NCBI GenBank assembly: GCA_963675755.2
Contig: CAXXMD010000002.1
Coordinates: 2,272,001 to 2,336,000, forward strand
DNA: 64,000 bases
Origin: a bacterium
GTDB lineage: Bacteria; Zhuqueibacterota; Zhuqueibacteria; Residuimicrobiales; Krinioviventaceae
Reading direction: 5' to 3'
In this document: one piece after another, positions 28,725 through 62,023 of the stretch
How the letters are laid out: each line of letters opens with the position of its first letter
How positions within the stretch are numbered: position 1 is the stretch's first letter
Translations under genes and position numbers: made by a program
Notes under the pieces: model-generated
The model's database searches: none
What the model saw: only the letters and a program-made list of their open reading frames with translations
Told to the model about the DNA's origin: nothing

Positions 28725-29279
28725 TTAATTTGCAGAGGTTAAGAAATCCTTAGGTATAACCTCTTTAACACCTAATTTCTGAATGGTTTCTGAAGTAAAT
28801 TTATCTTTCAGGTAATCATAATGGGTCAGATTCAAAATAATGGTTTTTTGATCTGCTTCTTCAATATAACCCAAAAGCGCTCCGGATTGAATATAATCCA
28901 TAGATGAAGTTACTAATGCGATTTGTTTTTCTTTACATTTTGATAAAATGTACAATTTGTTTTTACTGTTTTCAAAAATGTAATCATCGTAAACTACCAA
29001 CACACTGTTATTGCCGATTTTTTTGGTACCATTACCAATGTCTGAAGCATCATTAATGTCATAGATAATAGCCTTGACACCAAATTGCACAGTTGCACGT
29101 GAAATTTTGTCTTTTTCTTCAGCAAGGTTATCTCTTGAAATAAAAATGTTTAATTCCTGTGCTTCAGGAAACGCTTGCTTTACTAAATAAAACAACTGCA
29201 TACTGGAAACTTTGGCAAATGAAGGCATAGCAAACACAAGAATCCCTGCAACTACTCCAATCATCTTGGCAATTTTCAT
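28725..29279 (-). CDS. Secreted protein, weak YfiR/ABC substrate-binding-like fold
   Basis: Signal peptide; C-terminal SGALLG....K.IILNL pattern. Confidence 0.5.
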   Translation of the reverse strand: MKIAKMIGVVAGILVFAMPSFAKVSSMQLFYLVKQAFPEAQELNIFISRDNLAEEKDKISRATVQFGVKAIIYDINDASDIGNGTKKIGNNSVLVVYDDYIFENSKNKLYILSKCKEKQIALVTSSMDYIQSGALLGYIEEADQKTIILNLTHYDYLKDKFTSETIQKLGVKEVIPKDFLTSAN

Positions 29280-29339
29280 AGTCTCTCCTTTTTATGGATT
29301 TGAATAGTGATTATATTTATTATCTTTTGAACTGTTTTA

Positions 29340-29355
29340 AGCAACTAGTATGCCA
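29340..29355 (-). promoter_or_regulatory. sigma54 (-24/-12) promoter
   Basis: Minus strand TGGCAT-ACTAG-TTGCT, correct spacing, about 60 nt upstream of the 29279 start; AT-rich tract upstream. Confidence 0.7.
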
Positions 29356-29605
29356 CATGAATTACAAAAATGTTATTAATTTGTAAAATATTGTCGAAAA
29401 ATAACTAATTTACGTACAATCCAGATTAACGCAAATCATTTAAAAACAATAAATTAAACAAACTCACAACTTGAACATTTAAGAATAGTTTATTTTTAGT
29501 ATATATTACGTAAATTTTTAATTATTTTATTATTAAAGTGTGACATGATATGGTCAAGTGTGATATAAAAGCAACAAGTTTTATAATTATTTTGGTTTCA
29601 TGGAT

Positions 29606-29977
29606 TTTAAAAATTGTATCCCTAATATTAACAGTTTCCATTTGAGTCATGACAAAAGCGAAATGACCCGAATGCTTCTGACTGTTTTTCCCAGGCATGG
29701 TCCCTATATTTTGATATAGCCAAACACTCTCTGTTCCTTTGAAAAGATTCTGGTTGAATTAACTTTTCAAAGAGTGGACAAAGCAGTTAAATATTCTATG
29801 GGAAAAAGTGGCATCATTTACATGAACAATTTCACACCGGTGTTTATTAGTTTTGTACAAGCTGTAATTATGGCATTGGGCATTGATCATACTGGTTTTG
29901 ATATTGCAATAATTGATAATCATTTATATATTCTTGAGTTCAACATAAGATTTGGAATCCGGTGTTTTGTAAAATAA
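29606..29977 (+). pseudogene. Degraded RimK-like ATP-grasp gene
   Basis: Fragment IPNINSFHLSHDKSEMTR...P.HGPY then a stop; second fragment KYSMGKSG...LGIDHTGFDIAIIDNHLYILEFN. The middle appears deleted. Confidence 0.6.
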
Positions 29978-30105
29978 GGTGTTCCATTGCATCAACACAT
30001 TTATGACTATCTTCTTGAACAGACATACCAATTGGATTGCTATCAACAATAACCGCAGTTCTTTATATTTATCTCCTGTTTCCCATTTGAATTGAAAGGA
30101 AAAAA

Positions 30106-42228: not shown

Positions 42229-44358
42229 CTAATTATTGACTATACGGTTATACAAAGTTTCATACTCTGTTACCATTTTATTAATAGAGAATTCTTTTAA
42301 TACTTTATTTCTTGCATTTTCAGTTAAATATTGAACAAAACGGTTGTCCTCAATAACTCTTTTAATCAACTCGTACAGTTTTTCAGGATCACCGGGAGGC
42401 ATCAACAGCCCCGAATGTTCATGTTCAATCAATTCAGGAATACCCCCAACCTGGGTGGCAATCACAACCAATCCGGCGGACATGGCCTCCAATATGGAAA
42501 CCGGCATTCCTTCAGACCAGGAAGGCAGACAAAAAATGTCTGCATTTTGATACCAGGGTTTTACGTCTGTATGAAAACCGGCAAACTCGATCATATCCGA
42601 GACGCCCAAAATTTCTACCTGAGACTCTAATTTTCCATTCATATCATCACGACCTAAAAAAACAAATTGAATTGAGGTATTACCTCTGTCTTTGAACAAT
42701 TTGGCCGTTTGCAACAAAGTAATATGACCTTTTATTTTCTTTAAATTGGCAACCGTCAGAACTTTTATCTTACCATCTTTTTTCACTTTAGTAACATCGA
42801 TGGGTTGAATGCCATTATATATTACAGCAACTTTATCAACAGGTAAATTGTATTTTTCTAAAATCTGGTCAGCACCTGTCTTTGTCACGGAAATCCATTG
42901 ACATATATCTTTTTGTGTCACTTTGAACAACCAGGATTTTATCGGATTTTCAAAATCATGAATCCCATGCAGCGTTGAAATTACAGGAACGGATCGCCTG
43001 CGCTTAAAAAAAAGCGTAATAACCTGTGCCGTAATTCCATGGGTTTGTACAAGACCAATCTTATGTTTCTTGATAATCCGGCCAAGTTTGTACAATGAAA
43101 ATGGATTATATAAATTCAGCAAATAACCCGGTACATTATACTTTGCCGCTTCCTGAATTAAAATACCTTCACCCTTTAAACAAACCAGGGTATAATTCAC
43201 TCTATCACTTTTGTGGGCCATCATTTTGAGAACCAGATTTTCAGCACCGCCAATATCACTGGAGGTAGTAACTTGCATTACGTTTACCGGCTTTACTTCC
43301 TTTTGCCCTTTCAAGGCATTTAGCCATTTCACAGCATTTACATCAAAAGAGAATCTATTGCGAACTGTTTCAAGACCGTTTTTGCTGAATCCCTCATAGA
43401 TCTCAGCATCCTGAATCAAGGATATTAAACATATCTCCCATTCATCCAAACTGGTAGCAAGGTACCCATTCTCTCCATGCTGAATTATCTCTTTATTGAA
43501 TCCCACTGCCGATGCGACAACAGGAACGCCTGCGGTCATGTACTGCAATAGCTTGTAGCCCGCTTTTCCCCGCGTCCAAGGATTATCTGGCAGGGGCATA
43601 ACGCCAATATCAAAGGATTGAAGGTATTGCCACTCATCTTTTTTGTTCCACGGCAGACATTCAACATTCAAACCGGGCACATAAAAGCCCTCAACGCCTA
43701 CCAAACGAAAAACAATTTCAAAAGATTCGCTCAAACGCTTCAATACAGGAATAATTTCATTCAAATATTCCCGGGTTGAATTACTGCCAATCCAACCGAT
43801 TACTATTGGGCCATCCTTGAACCTTTTGGGCCTTGTACTAACTAGCGGATCAATACAGGTTGGAACAACCGTAACATTGGAATTATATTTTTTTGCAAAT
43901 GCTTCAAGATAAGGTGTGCTGGTTATAACTGCATCACAATTGCTGATAATTTTTTCTACAGATTTAAAATAGAGAATCAGTCGTTTGAACAGGGTTTTCT
44001 TTTTATAATATTCAAAAATAGCATCATCAAAATCAAAAACGCTATAACGTGCCAGACGTACAATCAATTTATCCAACAATGGATAAAAATAAGGCAAGGT
44101 CTCTCTTTGCAGTACAACAATATCATATTTTTTCAATTGTGGCAAAACTACAATACGGTCAAGTACCTTGAGTAGAAACCATAAAATCTTGTTAAAATAA
44201 GTTGGATGTGAATGATAGACACGATCCAGTTTTTCCGGTACGCCCGGACGTACAGTATATTTTATATTCTCTTTATCGAGATAGCCTAGCCATTCGTAAA
44301 CTCTGGCCCGACTTGATGCCCCCTGGACAGTTGTCTGGGTGAGAAAGAGAATATGCAT
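42229..44358 (-). CDS. Double GT4 glycosyltransferase fusion
   Basis: Domain 1 DIGVMPL...GKAGYKLLQYM..GVPVVAS; domain 2 GGAE, KGH, LPSWSEGMPVSILEAM. Confidence 0.9.
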   Translation of the reverse strand: MHILFLTQTTVQGASSRARVYEWLGYLDKENIKYTVRPGVPEKLDRVYHSHPTYFNKILWFLLKVLDRIVVLPQLKKYDIVVLQRETLPYFYPLLDKLIVRLARYSVFDFDDAIFEYYKKKTLFKRLILYFKSVEKIISNCDAVITSTPYLEAFAKKYNSNVTVVPTCIDPLVSTRPKRFKDGPIVIGWIGSNSTREYLNEIIPVLKRLSESFEIVFRLVGVEGFYVPGLNVECLPWNKKDEWQYLQSFDIGVMPLPDNPWTRGKAGYKLLQYMTAGVPVVASAVGFNKEIIQHGENGYLATSLDEWEICLISLIQDAEIYEGFSKNGLETVRNRFSFDVNAVKWLNALKGQKEVKPVNVMQVTTSSDIGGAENLVLKMMAHKSDRVNYTLVCLKGEGILIQEAAKYNVPGYLLNLYNPFSLYKLGRIIKKHKIGLVQTHGITAQVITLFFKRRRSVPVISTLHGIHDFENPIKSWLFKVTQKDICQWISVTKTGADQILEKYNLPVDKVAVIYNGIQPIDVTKVKKDGKIKVLTVANLKKIKGHITLLQTAKLFKDRGNTSIQFVFLGRDDMNGKLESQVEILGVSDMIEFAGFHTDVKPWYQNADIFCLPSWSEGMPVSILEAMSAGLVVIATQVGGIPELIEHEHSGLLMPPGDPEKLYELIKRVIEDNRFVQYLTENARNKVLKEFSINKMVTEYETLYNRIVNN

Positions 44359-45039: not shown

Positions 45040-47664
45040 TCAAGCAAGAATTTGGGGCTTTTCAATTACACCATTATTTTGTATTTGTTTTAAAAGGTAA
45101 TCCAGATTTAATACAATTAATATTTCAGAGGTATCAGAGCCTTTTGAAGGTTTTACAATACAATCAACAAGCTCGTTTTCATCCAACACAGATTGTTCTC
45201 TGTCTATATTCTCATTATTTACCCTGGGGATTTGCCCAAGTGCATCTACAACAAGCCCAACCTTAACTTTCTGCTTGTTCTCCAAAGTTAATTCCACAAC
45301 AACTATTGATGCCCTGGCAGGATCAACAGCATTTGTTGCATTCAGCAATTGATGTAACGAAATCACAAAAATCACCTGATCGTCAAATAAAGTTTTTCCA
45401 CTGATCAGGGAGTGCATCCCCGGCATACCTGTAACATTCTTGTATTCGATAGCTTTACATACATCAGAAGCGTTTATTCCGAACCAATTTCCTCCAATAT
45501 AAAATGTTGCCAGATCCGTAGTATCTTTAGTATTAACAGTAGATGCCTGATTATCAAAACTAACATGTTTATTTAATTGTTTGACCATCGAGTCTTTGAC
45601 CGGTGCAACAGGGTAAAATACGAGTCCAACTACATCATAAACATAACCGTCATTGACCTTGTATTCTCTGTATCCCGCACTTGTACACGCTCCAACTGCA
45701 TAATATTTATTGTTCAAAACAACAATCTTGGAGGTCTTTTCACCATTGTTCAAAGCAAGTAAGGTAGGATCAATTTCAATCTTGTCGCCGGGTTGATAAT
45801 CCAATGTGGTAGAGCTAATAACAGAACCATGGCGGTTGGTAAATAAACCGAAACTGCCTTCTCTGGCATTACCTTTATCATCTTTTGATAGTGAATCATT
45901 CAACATTGCAGAAAATTGAGGCGTACTGTCAAACACAATACCAATACCACCCAAAACAATTGACGAGTTTGTTAATTCTGTAATAGCTGCGCCATAAATA
46001 AATGTGTGTTCCTGATTATAAAGATCAGTTTTTTCAAAGTCAGACACAGCAAATTTTTGACTGTCCCTGATTGATAATGTTTCTTTGACCCAGGCATGAT
46101 CCAGATGCGTTCCCACCAACTGACTTTGTTCAGAATCAGAAACTGCCAGTATCTTTCCCTGCTTGTCAAAAACAAATAAATTCGTATAGACGGTATATAA
46201 ATTATTAATATATTTTAAAATATTCGTAATGGTTTCCAAGTTTTGGGAGTTTAGAGAATCAAGGGCTAATAGACGCTTGAACTCTGAAGTCAATGCCCAC
46301 CATCTGCAATCATTTGCACGTTCATACAAATTCCGGTCCATAATATCAACAGCTAAAGCAGCTTGAAATTCTACATCCTGTAAAATGGATGAAATAACGG
46401 TTTCATAAAGGTTATCAATAGAATCTTTAAATACGGACTTTGTACGTTCCCCGGCGTTTGAAATACTCCACAATAGTACTTTGGTAGAATCGTTTTTTTC
46501 ATCAACATTGCCATTCCATACAGTCCGCTCTAATTCAGATTGTATCAATTCCGCTTTTAAAGGTATATTTCTTAATTCGTTTGAAAACAATTGTGATGAA
46601 GACAAAACCTGTGACAAGGTTGTTTTGTCAATCCGTTTTTCAAGGTCCTTTGTATCTGCCTGCGCAAAAGCATGCTGCAGAGGAAGCATAACATGCCCAA
46701 ACCAGCCCAAGCCCATATACCCCTCATATCCCCCAGTCTCACATGTTTTAGCTAAATACTCACGACCGGCAAATCTGGCTATATTAAAATCACCATCCAG
46801 AGCCAACTCCATTTGGGCGCCAATTCTGATATGCTCTTCATCTGAACTTGCAATCACTTTTCCCGTTTTGTCTAAAAGTGTTAAAACGCCCCACTCTTTA
46901 GCATTGTGCAGCTTGGAAAAGATGCCTTTCATTTCATTCTGAAACCGGAAACACAGGGCCAAAACACCAATGGATTTTGCCTGACTGTTATTACTTTCCT
47001 GAATTCGATACGCATAGATTAATGAATCCCCTTCTCCCGGGAGTAAATCCGTTTCCCGATAAATCTCAACATATTCTTTGCTTGTTGAAAGCGCATCCTG
47101 AATGAATGAATCATTAGAGTGTTGTACATTATAATTCTGATCTAACCGGGCTTTGACATTCCCATGAGTATCAAGGAGTATGATATCAAAATAAACAGAA
47201 TATTTGGCCACATATTCTTTAAAACGTTGAATTATATGAGAGTGATTAAATTCAAGTGTAGAGTGGTTTTGATCATTCAGATCATTGTCAGTGTGAGATA
47301 AAAAAGCACGAATATCATCATCTGTGGAAAGGAACCCGATATCTGCAGTACGTTCAAACAGGTTTCGTATTACAATATCAACAACTACCTGGGCTTTGGC
47401 TTTAATATTTTGTACCGTCTTTCTTAATGTTTCTAAACCCAGTTGCCCCAACAATTGAAAAGTTAGTTCCTGAAAACTCTGTTGAGTACTGCTCATGTCA
47501 GTACCCATGTTATTCATTTTACCCAGAATCGTAAACAGGTCCCATTGCCCCCCAAGATTTGACAACTCTTCCCGGTATCGTTCCACGTCCGGCATATGAT
47601 TAACCAATCCTTCCAATTTTGCCGGTATTTTCACAGTTTTGTAAATAAACTCATGTTCCTGCAT
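45040..47664 (-). CDS. Large soluble protein with duplicated Cache-like modules and C-terminal CheW domain
   Basis: Repeated DI..RNL[FY]ER[TA][AN]D and Y.VY...FD..G motifs; CheW (ATFYIG..WFGI, GLVVDALG.IP). Confidence 0.75.
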   Translation of the reverse strand: MQEHEFIYKTVKIPAKLEGLVNHMPDVERYREELSNLGGQWDLFTILGKMNNMGTDMSSTQQSFQELTFQLLGQLGLETLRKTVQNIKAKAQVVVDIVIRNLFERTADIGFLSTDDDIRAFLSHTDNDLNDQNHSTLEFNHSHIIQRFKEYVAKYSVYFDIILLDTHGNVKARLDQNYNVQHSNDSFIQDALSTSKEYVEIYRETDLLPGEGDSLIYAYRIQESNNSQAKSIGVLALCFRFQNEMKGIFSKLHNAKEWGVLTLLDKTGKVIASSDEEHIRIGAQMELALDGDFNIARFAGREYLAKTCETGGYEGYMGLGWFGHVMLPLQHAFAQADTKDLEKRIDKTTLSQVLSSSQLFSNELRNIPLKAELIQSELERTVWNGNVDEKNDSTKVLLWSISNAGERTKSVFKDSIDNLYETVISSILQDVEFQAALAVDIMDRNLYERANDCRWWALTSEFKRLLALDSLNSQNLETITNILKYINNLYTVYTNLFVFDKQGKILAVSDSEQSQLVGTHLDHAWVKETLSIRDSQKFAVSDFEKTDLYNQEHTFIYGAAITELTNSSIVLGGIGIVFDSTPQFSAMLNDSLSKDDKGNAREGSFGLFTNRHGSVISSTTLDYQPGDKIEIDPTLLALNNGEKTSKIVVLNNKYYAVGACTSAGYREYKVNDGYVYDVVGLVFYPVAPVKDSMVKQLNKHVSFDNQASTVNTKDTTDLATFYIGGNWFGINASDVCKAIEYKNVTGMPGMHSLISGKTLFDDQVIFVISLHQLLNATNAVDPARASIVVVELTLENKQKVKVGLVVDALGQIPRVNNENIDREQSVLDENELVDCIVKPSKGSDTSEILIVLNLDYLLKQIQNNGVIEKPQILA

Positions 47665-48015: not shown

Positions 48016-48888
48016 CTAGTTTGTGTCGGTGGAAGTAAATGCCGGGTAATTTCTTAAAACATTTAAAATTTCTCTTTGAAGATTTTCGTCTTGTTTATCT
48101 CGTTCACGATATACCGACTGCTCAGCCTGATAGCGCCCCCCACGATAAAACCGGTCTGTTATAAACAAATAATACCAAACAGCACCACTAGTATCTCCTG
48201 TTGCTAATAATGAAATATTGGCAGTCAAATTTATACAATTCAGTATCAACGAATTTGCAAAATTTTTGTACTCTCCCGCATACAGCTGTCCACTTCCGGG
48301 AATAAATGTTGACAACCATTTGGCTATATTTGGATTTTTTGTTTTAATCGTCTCAGCTTTTTGTAAAATTCTATTCAATTCGGGTAAGCATTCTGTATCA
48401 TTTAAACGGTTATAATCACATAAAAACTCGTTTGCCTTTTGCCAGTTTTTAGCATAAACAGCAGAAATAAACAACAAAAAATAAATATTTTTTCTTTTCA
48501 CATCATTAAAAGGCTTTTGTAGTAAAGATAACAATTCCAATTGTGCAAGGCTGTAATTTTCCAAAACAATATAGCTAGAAGCTTTTGCTGTAATGATTTC
48601 AAATAACTGATCATCGCTTCTAATATAGTGCTGGGCTGTATTAAACATTTCAATAGATTTTGTATAGTCTCCCAATTCTCTATAACATAAACCCATTTTG
48701 TAGTAAACCTGTCCCAATAGATCTGGCTCCTTAGAAAAGCACAATACTCTATGCAATTCTTTTAAAGCATCATGATAATTGTTTTGATCTACCAAATAGT
48801 CACTAAAAACAATAACATCATTCAAACCGGATTGTGCAAAACACTGAACAGCTAAAAGAACAATACTATGGATTAAAAACTTTTTCAA
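48016..48888 (-). CDS. Secreted TPR protein with C-terminal TM2-like (KNP..A..LS..PG.GQ.Y.G) domain
   Basis: Likely TTG start at 48888 gives signal peptide MKKFLIHSIVLLAVQCFA; TPRs (YYKMGLCY); KNPNIAKWLSTFIPGSGQLYAG. Confidence 0.75.
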   Translation of the reverse strand: MKKFLIHSIVLLAVQCFAQSGLNDVIVFSDYLVDQNNYHDALKELHRVLCFSKEPDLLGQVYYKMGLCYRELGDYTKSIEMFNTAQHYIRSDDQLFEIITAKASSYIVLENYSLAQLELLSLLQKPFNDVKRKNIYFLLFISAVYAKNWQKANEFLCDYNRLNDTECLPELNRILQKAETIKTKNPNIAKWLSTFIPGSGQLYAGEYKNFANSLILNCINLTANISLLATGDTSGAVWYYLFITDRFYRGGRYQAEQSVYRERDKQDENLQREILNVLRNYPAFTSTDTN

Positions 48889-49735
48889 CAGAAACCCTAA
48901 TTCTATGATCAAACTGGTTATTAATTTCAATATTCTGGACTTTGACTGTAACAGCAGATCCATAAATATTACCCAGATAAAAAACAGTACCAAGACTACC
49001 AAACAACCATCCCTTAACTGAATGACTTCCATTGTCTGAGAATGAACTAAATGATTGCCATGACAATACTCCAACAAGTAAAAGTGTAGAAATGCCATCA
49101 ATGTTACGTCCGGCATAAACTTTACCCAAGCCTGGTAAAAATGCAGACAATATTCCCGCCTTAACCGGGCTTTTCATGGGTAAATTGGGTCCAATTTGTA
49201 GCAATTGTTTAAAATCATTAATAGAAAAATGTTGGATATCATCCAAACGATGCAAGTGCTTTTGTGCTTTTATCCATTTCTTTTCGGTCATATAATTTGC
49301 AGCTATCAATAATTCTTTTTCTATTTTCACATTATTATTATTAACCTGTTCCAAATACGTAATGGATTTTTCATTCTGATTCAAATGAAAATAAATATAT
49401 CCGGTCTGCAGTAAAGCATTATTATAAACCAGATTATTACTTTTATGAATAGCCCTAAATTTATTTAAAGCATTTTGATATTTTTGGGTATACTTGAAGC
49501 ACATTCCGATTTGGAACGTTATGCTGTCCACATCGCACTTTGATTCATTTTCACATAAATAAAGATAACGTTCATACTCAGAGATTGCAAATTGGTAATC
49601 CTGATTTTCATATAGATAATTTGCAAATTTCATTGTATTCGCTGGAGTATAGTAATCATAAAAATCCATATCTTGCGCGCAAACACGTATTACTGAAAAT
49701 ATTATTATTATACTAAAAAGATGCTTAATGCTCAT
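48866..49735 (-). CDS. Secreted TPR protein with C-terminal TM2-like domain (paralogue)
   Basis: Signal peptide; FANYLY...DY..AI.EYER; KSPVKAGILSAFLPGLGKVYAG; FYLGNIYGS. Confidence 0.8.
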   Translation of the reverse strand: MSIKHLFSIIIIFSVIRVCAQDMDFYDYYTPANTMKFANYLYENQDYQFAISEYERYLYLCENESKCDVDSITFQIGMCFKYTQKYQNALNKFRAIHKSNNLVYNNALLQTGYIYFHLNQNEKSITYLEQVNNNNVKIEKELLIAANYMTEKKWIKAQKHLHRLDDIQHFSINDFKQLLQIGPNLPMKSPVKAGILSAFLPGLGKVYAGRNIDGISTLLLVGVLSWQSFSSFSDNGSHSVKGWLFGSLGTVFYLGNIYGSAVTVKVQNIEINNQFDHRIRVSVEKVFNP

Positions 49736-50171
49736 GTAGCTTCCCCTTTAAAACTATTTGATAATATAAAATATCATCAATAGCTTTTCCGGTCACAGGA
49801 TCAATCTCATAATATTTCAAAGCAATATCATTACAACGAACCAACCGGTCTGCGGTTAATAGAATCCCCGTAAAAACCCCTCTTTGTTTAATAGCCATAT
49901 AACCAAAATTTGAACAACTGACATTAAAATTACATGTTGGCTTGTCCTGAGGAGAAATAAAATTTTGATACACTTTGATTGCTCCCTTTGGTAAAAGCTT
50001 TATCAGCGATAAATCTTCAATTGGGGATTCATTAGAAGCCTTGATATCTGAAGAAGGATGACTTTTAAGGATGAATTGTATATTATTATCATAGGGAAAA
50101 CAGATTGCCGTTGTAAATAATAAACTTGACAAACATATTGCCCATATAAATTTAAAGTTAACATTTACCAT
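49725..50171 (-). CDS. YidD-family (membrane protein insertion efficiency factor) paralogue with signal peptide
   Basis: IKVYQNFISPQD..TCNF..SCS.F...AI..RG...G....ADRL.RCN; hydrophobic N-terminal extension. Confidence 0.85.
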   Translation of the reverse strand: MVNVNFKFIWAICLSSLLFTTAICFPYDNNIQFILKSHPSSDIKASNESPIEDLSLIKLLPKGAIKVYQNFISPQDKPTCNFNVSCSNFGYMAIKQRGVFTGILLTADRLVRCNDIALKYYEIDPVTGKAIDDILYYQIVLKGKLHEH

Positions 50172-50896
50172 TCAAAATTTTCAATCGTTACATTTTCTGG
50201 AATATCTAAATTTAAACTATCGGGAATACTTTTATTTATTTCAAGGTTTGTCAAAGTCACATTCTTTTTTGTTATTTTCCCACTATTCTTATATAATATC
50301 TCAACAGTTCCAGGGAACCCTATAAAACCTAATTTTTGATAATCCTTGAATAATATCTTTTGAACGATATTATCTTTTTCATCATAAATTAAAACATTCA
50401 CCAATTTATCATTTAGCGTTTTTAGTACTGTTGCTCCCGCATTGCCCATCTCTTTTGGAGGTTGCCATATAGTTATCAGGGTATCATTCTCTACCTGATA
50501 ATCTGAAAGCGTATACGATAATGCAGATAAACCATAATCTTTGTACTGAGATGCAACAAATGGAGACAAGAATATCAACTTATCATGATAGGCTGCATTT
50601 ACATTATAAAGCAAATGCTTTTCAGGATAAAAAATTTGCATCAATGTATCATTAATTACAATATCCTGCATTATCGGATAATTAATTTTTAAATGCAATG
50701 TTTCAGGATAATTCAGGAACAAACTGCCTTTGGTTAAAGATTCTGTATCATTTTCAACTAAAATTTTTGTAAAATTAGCAGATAAGGAAATCAATTCAAC
50801 ACTTTGTAATGTAGCTGAAAAAGCTGTCATTCCCTGAAAGGCACAAAATAAAAGTACATATAAAAAGTAATCTTTGATAATTTTTGTACGAAACAT
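50165..50896 (-). CDS. LolA-like periplasmic carrier protein
   Basis: Signal peptide; SANFT, G.LFL..P..L...Y P..Q.IV.N......YP pattern; C-terminal LEINK.IPD. Confidence 0.6.
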   Translation of the reverse strand: MFRTKIIKDYFLYVLLFCAFQGMTAFSATLQSVELISLSANFTKILVENDTESLTKGSLFLNYPETLHLKINYPIMQDIVINDTLMQIFYPEKHLLYNVNAAYHDKLIFLSPFVASQYKDYGLSALSYTLSDYQVENDTLITIWQPPKEMGNAGATVLKTLNDKLVNVLIYDEKDNIVQKILFKDYQKLGFIGFPGTVEILYKNSGKITKKNVTLTNLEINKSIPDSLNLDIPENVTIENFEW

Positions 50897-50910
50897 CTTG
50901 ATCTCGAATA

Positions 50911-50944
50911 TTTTCCGGGTAAAGACACATCTTTACCCGGAAAA
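50911..50944. other. Perfect 15-bp intergenic stem-loop
   Basis: TTTTCCGGGTAAAGA-CACA-TCTTTACCCGGAAAA. Confidence 0.8.
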
Positions 50945-50956
50945 CCTTAAACGTTA

Positions 50957-51382
50957 TTAATTGGATTCAGATTCAGCCGTAGCCATAAAGTAAACCATAG
51001 ATACAGTTGAGCCTACTGCCCATCCTATACAAGCAGCTTTTGTCCGAAGACTTTTAGCTTTTTGACGATAACATGTCGCATATGCGTGAGCATAATCCTC
51101 ATCTTTACCAACAAGGCGTTCTACAGGAGGCTCGGGTTTGCTAGTGGCCGCAAAGATATAACCAAAAACACCACACATGAATCCGCCAAAAGCGAAACTG
51201 GCGCTATTATCTTCATCTTCAATTGCATCTTGTTCTGCTTTTTGACAGATGGATTCATAATTCTCAGTTTCTGCGTCCTGAGCAAATGAAAAATCCATAG
51301 TGATTGGCAGGATTACCAAATTTAACATCAATGCAACCATTAACAAATTCACAACAATAAACCGGTTTCGAATGAAATCCAT
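50957..51382 (-). CDS. Small secreted protein with two Gly-rich hydrophobic segments
   Basis: Strong RBS AAGGAGG; signal ending FSFA-Q; FAFGGFMCGVFGYIFA and AACIGWAVGSTVSMVYFMA. Confidence 0.8.
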   Translation of the reverse strand: MDFIRNRFIVVNLLMVALMLNLVILPITMDFSFAQDAETENYESICQKAEQDAIEDEDNSASFAFGGFMCGVFGYIFAATSKPEPPVERLVGKDEDYAHAYATCYRQKAKSLRTKAACIGWAVGSTVSMVYFMATAESESN

Positions 51383-54567: not shown

Positions 54568-55083
54568 TTAATGTGCTTTCAACTCTTTAACTTTTCCGGT
54601 AGCAGCTTTTATTACTTTATTAGCATTTTTGTCAAACATTTCAGCACAATGCTCACCACATAAATAATAGGTTTGCCCATCATACACACGGGAAATTGCC
54701 GTATCGCTGGCGGTTACATCCATTCCACAGGCACATTTGGCAACCATTTCACCCGAATCATTGACCTTGTAAACATTGCCCATCATTCCATTATCAATTC
54801 TGGCTTTTAATACTTTATTATCAAGAGCTGCTTTCATTGTAGAAATATTTTCGCTGAATTTTGTTTTACAGCCTTCACTGCAAACATAATAAGATTCCCC
54901 ATCTACTTCTACAGCAGGCGTTGCATCTGTAACTTTAACTTGCATACCACAAGCACATAAAGCCGTTTCCTGATCGTCTGACACTTTAATTATATTCGCT
55001 CCGTGTTTGTGCACGTCTCCTGCAAAAATCACTGAACTGCTCAACAATAACCCCATAACCATTAACATACTTTTATTTTTCAT
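54568..55083 (-). CDS. Secreted tandem YHS/TRASH-domain metal-binding protein
   Basis: Two repeats CACGM.V...DG..YY.C...C...F; signal peptide. Confidence 0.8.
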   Translation of the reverse strand: MKNKSMLMVMGLLLSSSVIFAGDVHKHGANIIKVSDDQETALCACGMQVKVTDATPAVEVDGESYYVCSEGCKTKFSENISTMKAALDNKVLKARIDNGMMGNVYKVNDSGEMVAKCACGMDVTASDTAISRVYDGQTYYLCGEHCAEMFDKNANKVIKAATGKVKELKAH

Positions 55084-60991: not shown

Positions 60992-62023
60992 TCAAAGTGA
61001 AATTTCATTTCTTTTTTTTATAATTGAATCAATCCATTTTGGAATATCTTTGATATCTGGATTAATATGGAAATGAATTTTATTAATTAATTTAATCAAA
61101 AGATCAACTGTCAAAAAAGCAGTATCAAAATCAATTTTATAGAAAAGAAGTAATTTATCATAACCGCCGAATTTTTCAGGTGCAGAAAAAGGAGAAGGGT
61201 GCACTAGAGAATCTCTATATGGTTTCACAATATCAATAAATCCAACAATTTCTCCATCATTTTCTTCCCAAAGAGTACGTTTACTTATTATCTCAGGATA
61301 TTTTTTCAATTTATCCCTGATTGATACAGATGTAGAATCAGTTAAACATTTATATTGCCGATTCGATAAATCTTCTTGACCGAATTTATAAATATAATCC
61401 CAAGCTAAACCGTTAAGATATGCTTCTAATAAATTAAAGCAAGATAAAATTAACATTCTAATAGTAAAAAATTTCATTCTTAAAAAAGAAGTTATTTCTT
61501 CTCTTTTTTGGAGCAACTCCTTATGTGATAATTTTTCATACTTTTTCAGTTCAATTTGTGAGTTTGTGGCTAATCCCATTGCTTCAATAATATCTTTTGA
61601 TAATTCATTTTCAGGGAATTTGAATTGAAGTCCCCAAAGTGAAATACTAACTGTTAAATGCAAGGGAAAACCAATAAGTATTTGGGGATGTATTGGTGCA
61701 TACTTTTTTTCAAAATCAGATAATGATATTTCAAGCCCCCTATACTTTTTAATCTCTTCATATAAATTTGAAAGAATATCTACATTCATATTTAAAAAAT
61801 TCTGTTTACAAAATCTATCAAGTTCGGTAGACAATCTTTTCTTTACATCATTATATGCAGATTTTAAAAATCGTCGAGGTAAATTTTCAAGATCATCTTG
61901 ATCCGCTTTTAAAAATTCGTTCCAATCATTAAGTTCCTTAAGCATGAGCTTTCCAACTGCAGCTGCACGATTATATTTACGAATTTTCTGAACTTCACGA
62001 TTACGTCCTTGTGCAATTTGCAT
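60992..62023 (-). CDS. AT-rich hypothetical protein, putative HEPN-domain RNase
   Basis: Helical; FNLLEAYLN (E helix) and RDSLVH (RxxxxH, 61199-61216). Confidence 0.55.
   Translation of the reverse strand: MQIAQGRNREVQKIRKYNRAAAVGKLMLKELNDWNEFLKADQDDLENLPRRFLKSAYNDVKKRLSTELDRFCKQNFLNMNVDILSNLYEEIKKYRGLEISLSDFEKKYAPIHPQILIGFPLHLTVSISLWGLQFKFPENELSKDIIEAMGLATNSQIELKKYEKLSHKELLQKREEITSFLRMKFFTIRMLILSCFNLLEAYLNGLAWDYIYKFGQEDLSNRQYKCLTDSTSVSIRDKLKKYPEIISKRTLWEENDGEIVGFIDIVKPYRDSLVHPSPFSAPEKFGGYDKLLLFYKIDFDTAFLTVDLLIKLINKIHFHINPDIKDIPKWIDSIIKKRNEISL

Follow-up and report, generated by a model that had tools for sequence, protein, structure and literature searches.

Why should a homologue of YidD carry a segment that looks like an export signal, and what would such a protein do among four further genes whose products seem exported as well? 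The question is raised by positions 48016-51382, minus strand, of a 64,000-nucleotide window, i.e., the whole stretch of DNA analysed here (positions 2,272,001 to 2,336,000 of contig CAXXMD010000002.1, GenBank assembly GCA_963675755.2, a bacterium of the family Krinioviventaceae), where ORF calling gives five co-oriented open reading frames (ORFs), g1 to g5, placed head to tail. Canonical YidD is the "membrane protein insertion efficiency factor" of the rpmH-rnpA-yidD-yidC locus; it is nearly universal and its function is poorly understood, and in E. coli it sits on the cytoplasmic face of the membrane and contacts nascent membrane proteins. Here, we find that g3 is an extra YidD paralogue, that the five genes, judged from their sequences, form an operon conserved across several bacterial phyla, and that g2, with a predicted LolA/LolB fold, is modelled with a conserved loop of g1 inside its cavity. 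We tentatively propose that the exported YidD and two tetratricopeptide repeat (TPR) proteins, g4 and g5, make up an inner-membrane platform which, with a dedicated LolA-fold chaperone, handles helix-anchored exported proteins of the g1 type.

The YidD paralogue and its operon

The g3 product scores above both curated cut-offs for YidD, i.e., 61.5 bits against 27 for PF01809 and 66.1 bits against 40 for TIGR00278, and it aligns with the housekeeping YidD of the same genome at 38% identity over 50 amino acids, with the same three cysteines in place. Among 42 long paralogues, C86 and C113 (g3 numbering) are invariant and C80 is kept in at least 90%, which gives the pattern C..C...RC. Canonical YidD, in contrast, is about 70-110 amino acids long without an export signal, whereas g3 has 148; its first ~55 residues, a hydrophobic export-type segment and a linker, precede the region that aligns with the housekeeping protein, and this addition is retained across the 42 homologues as a hydrophobic segment followed by A-x-A/Q-type sites. 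The location differs too: g3 lies between the LolA-like gene and a TPR gene, inside an operon of exported proteins and away from yidC, and a separate housekeeping yidD (76 amino acids, 102.7 bits) is found within rpmH-rnpA-yidD-yidC on contig C3 of the same genome. Since this second copy occupies the canonical locus, g3 is an extra paralogue and not a misplaced or mis-started housekeeping gene. The initial annotation, made from the letters of the window, had pointed to a YidD homologue with a signal-like N-terminus away from rpmH-rnpA-yidC and had considered that it might be the genome's sole yidD; the first two observations stand, and the last is settled by the 76-residue copy.

An exhaustive HMMER search with YidD returned 2490 matches at E <= 0.001, 284 of them at E <= 1e-10, and most of the best 150 are 130-165 amino acids long. 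A further difference from the canonical protein is that long YidD is naturally fused to TPR and membrane regions in other organisms: six of the best 150 matches are joined to TPR repeats and/or to a membrane region opening with a PG-G-Y motif. Briefly, P0046, P0064, P0067, and P0122 are YidD-TPR-PG-G-Y proteins, P0144 has the order YidD, hairpin, TPR, second hairpin, and P0124 consists of YidD and a hairpin. Longer-frame YidD matches in relatives (L020-L022) were also considered as copies of the module and rejected; they have the YidD domain only, with no TPR or LolA-like gene nearby.

The two TPR genes are paralogues (23% identity over 241 amino acids, E 1e-11), and both products carry the motif K.P..A..LS..PG.G..YAG that had been noticed at the outset. 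In an alignment of 16 TPR1 sequences (g4 and its homologues) the C-terminal region has S197, P201, G202, G204, Y207, D213, F232, G242, G246, and I257-S260 invariant, and the hydropathy of the C-terminal regions is compatible with two or three membrane helices. By sequence we assign g4 and g5 as TPR repeat proteins: the window proteins are just under the single-repeat cut-offs (e.g., TPR_2, 23.9 against 27), and TPR_16 is matched at E <= 0.01 by 11 of the 16 TPR1 homologues, the best at 5.6e-09. Their PG-G-(Q/K)-Y motif opening a hydrophobic helical region is shared with TM2 (PF05154) and DUF5683 (PF18935), but the scores are below both cut-offs, i.e., 14.6 bits against 27.9 for g4 with TM2 and 17.6 bits against 26.7 for g5 with DUF5683. 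One of the 16 TPR1 homologues matches TM2 at E <= 0.01, and the DUF5683 cut-off is reached only by the fusion protein P0144 (31.4 bits). The name "TPR-TM2" used in the initial annotation is right about TPR; the membrane region is only faintly like TM2 or DUF5683. To our knowledge neither TM2 nor DUF5683 has a known function in bacteria, and in the literature DUF5683 met with incidental mentions only.

Co-conservation was surveyed once around YidD and once around g1. Twenty-four loci make up the YidD-centred set: the window itself, three more that come from relatives, and 20 taken from public genomes with the labels Poribacteria, Latescibacterota, KSB1, Cloacimonetes, Ignavibacteria/Kapaibacterium/Melioribacter, Bacteroidota, and Spirochaetota; L018 and L019 duplicate L028 and L024 and are not counted. 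Four ORF clusters dominate these loci: YidD in 22, TPR in 22 (42 ORFs), LolA-like in 20, and g1 in 17 (23 ORFs, one to three copies per locus), and the next most widespread cluster reaches 6 of the 24. The full order g1-LolA-YidD-TPR-TPR is present in 13 loci. In this set g1 never occurs without a LolA-like gene, and the loci that lack the LolA-like gene (L023, L026, L040) lack g1 as well (3/3). The g1-centred survey covered 40 metagenome loci, 28 of them assessable; a LolA-like gene follows directly downstream of g1 in 20 of the 28, and LolA, YidD, and TPR genes are near g1 in 13 of the 18 loci with at least 2 kb of downstream sequence. Among 41 related genomes, six (G000, G001, G006, G011, G012, G034) have a long YidD, and the four matched by the g1 profile are all among these six. 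Both surveys bear out that the genes are kept together.

The module looks like a YidD/TPR core combined with a LolA-like/g1 pair, since the YidD and TPR parts are fused in nature and g1 and the LolA-like gene travel together. One public locus has two long-YidD genes (L023:3538-4853 and L023:5950-8099), with one TPR membrane gene after the first and two after the second, and no LolA-like gene or g1 in the 12 kb of the locus; the arrangement resembles a doubled core that lacks the accessory pair.

The LolA-fold protein and the conserved loop of g1

The g2 sequence is at the border of DUF4292 (PF14125; 23.1 bits, cut-off 23, residues 154-236 only) and reaches 15.8 bits against a cut-off of 50 for LolB1_Flavo. 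Its AlphaFold2 (AF2) model, with a predicted local distance difference test (pLDDT) score of 87.5, gave 105 PDB matches at E <= 0.001 in Foldseek, with LolA, LolB, and other LolA-superfamily chains as the top-ranked ones, e.g., 2w7q at E 1e-11 and P. gingivalis LolB 9tpm at TMq 0.59. The solved complex of LolA with the periplasmic domain of LolC (6f3z) and RseB (2p4b, E 4.4e-06) are among the fold matches as well. On this model, g2 is a LolA/LolB-fold protein, with a predicted unclosed beta-barrel and a hydrophobic cavity.

Another LolA-like protein, LolA3 of Bacteroidota (Fjoh_0605; PGN0947, PDB 9tp6), shares the LolA fold with g2 at TMq 0.55. LolA3 is an extra LolA-fold paralogue of unassigned role, for which the two papers concerned report no gliding or type IX secretion system (T9SS) phenotype and only weak LolB binding (PMC11885536, PMC13103446). 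Neither main text contains YidD, and there is no TPR in that of PMC13103446 and no "tetratricopeptide" in that of PMC11885536. Orthology of g2 with P. gingivalis LolA3 is unsupported because a profile of 13 g2 sequences did not match 9tp6 at E <= 1.

The g1 protein begins with a signal-like N-terminus, followed by an acidic helix, a Gly-rich hydrophobic segment, a loop and helix start with the pattern PxPP-L[VI]GK-Y..Y..Y, a C-terminal hydrophobic helix, and a short acidic tail. It belongs to no Pfam or NCBIfam family; a single-sequence word search found only the copy of the same genus, so that an alignment search was needed for the rest, and the profile/alignment search gave 182 clusters, all "hypothetical", as were the clusters found in the ESM Atlas. 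Its AF2 model (pLDDT 81.2) has no PDB fold match at E <= 0.001, and in it the Gly-rich segment is split into two short helices, 59-68 and 71-80. Across the family P83, P86, L90, G92, K93, Y97, Y101, and Y105 are invariant or nearly so. More distant g1 homologues with the same loop motif (ERLIGKSPEY) were seen at L072, L073/L076, L078, L079/L080, and L081/L074, none of them with a LolA-like, YidD, or TPR gene in the locus DNA; the neighbours of L072, L076, and L080 encode NUDIX, periplasmic binding, lectin-like, and unknown-family proteins, with no common partner.

Where does this loop lie? We place it in the periplasm and not in the cytoplasm, as far as the family's sequences can tell, because of four features, i.e., lipoprotein-type paralogues, a variable preceding segment, paired cysteines, and fusions to periplasmic domains. 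First, two paralogues of about 300 amino acids (L035:545-1459 and L036:1965-2870) have a VTGC lipobox, and their domain of ~200 amino acids leads directly to the conserved loop, without an intervening hydrophobic stretch. Second, the segment before the loop is 34-51 amino acids long in 45 of 81 members and has at least one internal proline in 51 of 81; the variants at L072, L077, and L081 have two hydrophobic helices of ~20 amino acids there. Third, a cysteine in the exported N-terminal helix and a cysteine in the loop (TDCY) occur together or not at all: of 15 sequences 9 have both and 6 have neither, in a set of 81 the corresponding counts are 3 and 78, and no sequence of either set is discordant. 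Related sequences are not independent in these counts, but the genus of the window and its relative of the same family differ in state. Fourth, a CsgG/LpoB/TolB_N-like periplasmic domain stands in front of the g1 core, in one fusion protein each, at L029:4282-5199 (57.6 bits) and L039:4128-4949 (35.4 bits). The "small hairpin protein" of the initial annotation does not survive in this form, as a periplasmic loop means that g1 would not be a plain two-pass hairpin with a cytoplasmic loop.

Two side observations belong to these variants. The N-terminal domain of the two lipoprotein-type paralogues has no Pfam match, and each of the two genes is flanked by two ordinary g1 copies. The records of the two periplasmic-domain fusions carry different phylum labels.

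Mature g2 (residues 29-243) and mature g1 (residues 35-141) were then modelled as a complex. The median score is 0.84 (runs 0.84, 0.82, 0.85), against 0.04 for the best of three controls; among solved complexes 58 of 80 get to this mark, among mismatched pairs 2 of 110, a calibration that is approximate as custom alignments were used. The pLDDT of the partner is 55 or more, and agreement between the runs is 57% of contacts or better. On the g1 side the contacts are made by residues 73-107, which run from the last part of the Gly-rich segment through the PEPP-LVGK loop into the first part of the long helix, and on the g2 side by the strands lining the concave face. Conservation is higher in interface columns than elsewhere, both in g2 (mean entropy 1.64 vs 2.00; 40 of 10000 random subsets as low) and in g1 (1.50 vs 1.80; 779 of 10000). 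The model favours binding and supports the view that the conserved Pro-rich loop of g1 sits within the g2 cavity. The suggestion, made at the outset, of a periplasmic carrier dedicated to the product of the first gene is partly upheld in this way, by the score and by the confinement of g1, in the YidD-centred set, to loci with a LolA-like gene.

Compared with the Lol pathway (LolCDE-LolA-LolB; 6f3z, 7z6w, 8orn), the likeness is in the LolA/LolB fold and in a partner segment that is modelled inside the cavity. The differences are that g2, with 20.9 bits, is far under the cut-off of 112 of the LolA equivalog TIGR00547, that the module encodes neither an ATP-binding cassette (ABC) extractor nor a LolB-type lipoprotein, and that the modelled ligand is a protein loop with half a hydrophobic helix and not acyl chains. 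No lolCDE-type gene is co-conserved in the 24 YidD-centred loci.

Layout of the locus and its surroundings

Table 1. Coordinates of the five genes and of their main regions within the window.
Feature	Position	Strand	Basis
g1, 141-aa exported hydrophobic protein	50957..51382	-	ORF; AF2 pLDDT 81.2
g1 residues 82-107, conserved Pro-rich loop with the beginning of the long helix, predicted to contact the LolA fold	51062..51139	-	conservation, complex model
g2, 243-aa exported protein, predicted LolA/LolB fold	50165..50896	-	DUF4292 borderline; AF2; Foldseek
g3, 148-aa YidD paralogue, ~55 extra N-terminal residues	49725..50171	-	PF01809, TIGR00278
g3 residues 63-118, YidD domain, cysteines C80, C86, C113	49818..49985	-	PF01809 match, conserved columns
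g4 (TPR1), 289 aa: signal-like N-terminus, TPR array, conserved C-terminal membrane region	48866..49735	-	
g4 residues 188-265, conserved PG-G-Y membrane region	48941..49174	-	alignment of TPR1 homologues
g5 (TPR2), paralogue of g4, 290 aa from the proposed TTG start	48016..48888	-	
g5 residues 185-259, C-terminal membrane region, aligned to its g4 counterpart	48112..48336	-	g4/g5 alignment

The likely start of g5 is the TTG at 48888, giving MKKFLIHSIVLLAVQCFAQ... and a normal export signal; the frame is open upstream to 49116, and the alternative start is the ATG at 48963. With the TTG start the genes overlap by 7 nt (g2/g3), 11 nt (g3/g4), and 23 nt (g4/g5), and g1 and g2 are separated by 60 nt. 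The GC content is 0.30-0.33 across 48-51 kb, compared with 0.36-0.48 in most other 1-kb windows, and a hydrophobic N-terminal segment (a cleaved signal or a signal anchor) is present in all five products, with homologues that retain it and have A-x-A/Q-type sites after it. The first description of the locus, i.e., an AT-rich module of five genes with signal-like N-termini, the last four of which overlap one another, thus holds in each part. A promoter and terminator scan was uninformative: it gave 29 promoter-like sites, compared with 22.6 ± 4.8 in shuffled sequence, and 2 terminator-like sites, compared with 2.3.

The neighbours of the module are a gene for a BNR-repeat protein on the upstream side and one for a Cache-CheW protein on the downstream side, both shared only with the genome of the same genus. 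The latter (window 45040-47664, minus strand, 874 amino acids) has Cache-like regions (dCache_1, 30.4 bits, cut-off 45) and a C-terminal CheW domain (57.7 bits), and neither a methyl-accepting nor a kinase domain was detected in it. On the same strand are a 171-residue exported protein with two YHS/TRASH-type metal-binding repeats (window 54568-55083; YHS, 51.3 bits) and a 709-residue protein that apparently consists of two GT4-type glycosyltransferase units in tandem (window 42229-44358). Two more kilobases of low GC content are found outside the module, at window positions 29001-30000 (0.304) and 61001-62000 (0.280).

What the module may do

The export-type N-termini on all five products would put the YidD fold, the TPR arrays, the LolA fold, and most of g1 in the periplasm, and the five genes may represent one envelope module that acts on the outer side of the cytoplasmic membrane. 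The YidD paralogue and the two TPR proteins would be one unit, as the natural gene fusions suggest, with the PG-G-Y helical regions of the TPR proteins as its anchors in the inner membrane. The LolA-fold cavity would hold the Pro-rich loop of g1 and the adjoining half of its Gly-rich hydrophobic segment, a step that draws on the controlled complex model, conservation, and gene co-occurrence. The g1-type proteins, of which a locus has one to three copies and some of which are fused to periplasmic domains, would then be clients, and the YidD/TPR platform may take them over at the Sec exit, where their hydrophobic helices would be exposed. The contact with such helices that housekeeping YidD is believed to make on the cis side may be made by the exported paralogue on the trans side, and the clients may then pass to the LolA-fold chaperone for delivery or insertion, for which we infer the outer membrane as the most likely destination. 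If the g1 loop is periplasmic, the C-terminal helix of g1 breaks the positive-inside rule for an inner-membrane anchor, and this is one reason for the suspicion that g1 leaves the inner membrane. We hold this reading, with its predicted location, binding, and transport roles, to be somewhat less than an even chance.

Several points weigh against it. The evidence is computational throughout. By its charges, g1 fits a classical two-pass protein whose loop is cytoplasmic: this loop averages 5.3 K/R vs 2.5 D/E and the N-terminal region 2.4 K/R vs 4.7 D/E, and the tail is acidic, with K/R present in only 13 of 80 sequences. Among the genes of the module there is none for an outer-membrane acceptor or an energy source, and none for an ATPase. 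In the g1-centred survey, 8 of the 28 assessable loci are without any LolA-like, YidD, or TPR gene in the locus DNA; please note that these eight have more distant g1 homologues and that some of the loci are near-identical to one another. Conversely, g1 was not found in G006 (94% complete), a genome with a long YidD. Concerning the complex model, the controls are unrelated natural proteins of unstated kind, so a generic draw of hydrophobic segments into a LolA cavity is not controlled for, and part of the high score may reflect likeness to known structures because solved LolA complexes exist.

The strongest competing explanation makes g1 a resident subunit of a static inner-membrane complex, with its periplasmic loop as the site where the LolA-fold protein docks; the operon would then not encode the true cargo, which would be a lipid, a lipoprotein, or some other hydrophobic molecule. 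Such a complex would parallel the recruitment of LolA by the periplasmic loop of LolC, a structure (6f3z) found among the fold matches of g2, and it is in keeping with a model that places the loop and not the whole helix into the cavity and with a C-terminal helix of g1 that is of transmembrane grade (mean hydropathy 2.0 over 19 residues). The loci L017 and L027, which have a LolA-like gene but no g1, count for the static complex and against g1 as the client. However, one to three copies of g1 and fusions to unrelated periplasmic domains are more typical of clients, no ATPase or extractor is there to load a cargo, and no cargo gene is co-conserved, as no other cluster occurs in more than 6 of the 24 loci. 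We consider the static complex rather doubtful.

An ATP-independent Lol-like route for helix-anchored proteins would take the handling of g1 by the platform and the chaperone to its end: the YidD/TPR unit would release the client at the Sec exit, the LolA-fold protein would carry it, and insertion into the outer membrane would be tail first, with the positively charged loop at the periplasmic face and the short acidic tail outside. We regard this full route as unlikely.

In another explanation g1 is an exported membrane-active peptide, bacteriocin-like or pore-forming, and the other four genes give export help or self-protection. The small, Gly-rich, and hydrophobic nature of g1, its tandem copies, the paired cysteine in some members, the patchy distribution among relatives (6 of 41 genomes), and a GC content below that of the surrounding DNA would all suit such a peptide; yet the loop has invariant residues across phyla, unlike fast-evolving bacteriocins, some g1 forms are lipoproteins or have large periplasmic domains, no dedicated exporter or peptidase is present, and PADLOC matched no family to any of the five proteins, which leaves this weaker explanation very improbable. 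Slightly less probable still is an envelope-stress sensor of the RseA/RseB type, in which, as RseB binds the periplasmic domain of RseA, the LolA-fold protein would cap the periplasmic segment of a small membrane-anchored protein and let go of it when lipids or misassembled envelope material bind. RseB is among the fold matches and g2 is modelled on just such a segment, but the g1 tail averages 8 residues, too few for a cytoplasmic output domain, and the 24 loci show no co-conserved sigma factor, protease, or regulator.

The initial annotation knew of no characterised system of this composition, and we found no paper describing the gene combination; among the literature matches listed, with supplementary files outside the scope, there was no description of an exported YidD or of this gene set. 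New here are the assignment of the g1 loop to the periplasm, the dependence of g1 on the LolA-like gene, and the controlled g1-g2 model. Any culturable carrier lends itself to genetics and biochemistry, since the module is compact, with five small genes, and is spread over several phyla.

A widespread YidD paralogue that would lie across the membrane from the canonical one, linked to TPR, LolA-fold, and g1 proteins, offers a new handle on the function of the YidD fold. If the Lol-like route is true, it would be the first role assigned to an exported YidD and would amount to a dedicated pathway for alpha-helical outer-membrane anchors in lineages of the FCB group, the PVC group, and the spirochaetes. 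If the LolA-fold protein carries g1-type anchors, then the idea of a hydrophobic-cargo carrier would extend from lipoproteins to helix-anchored proteins, which bears on the path by which alpha-helical proteins reach the outer membrane.

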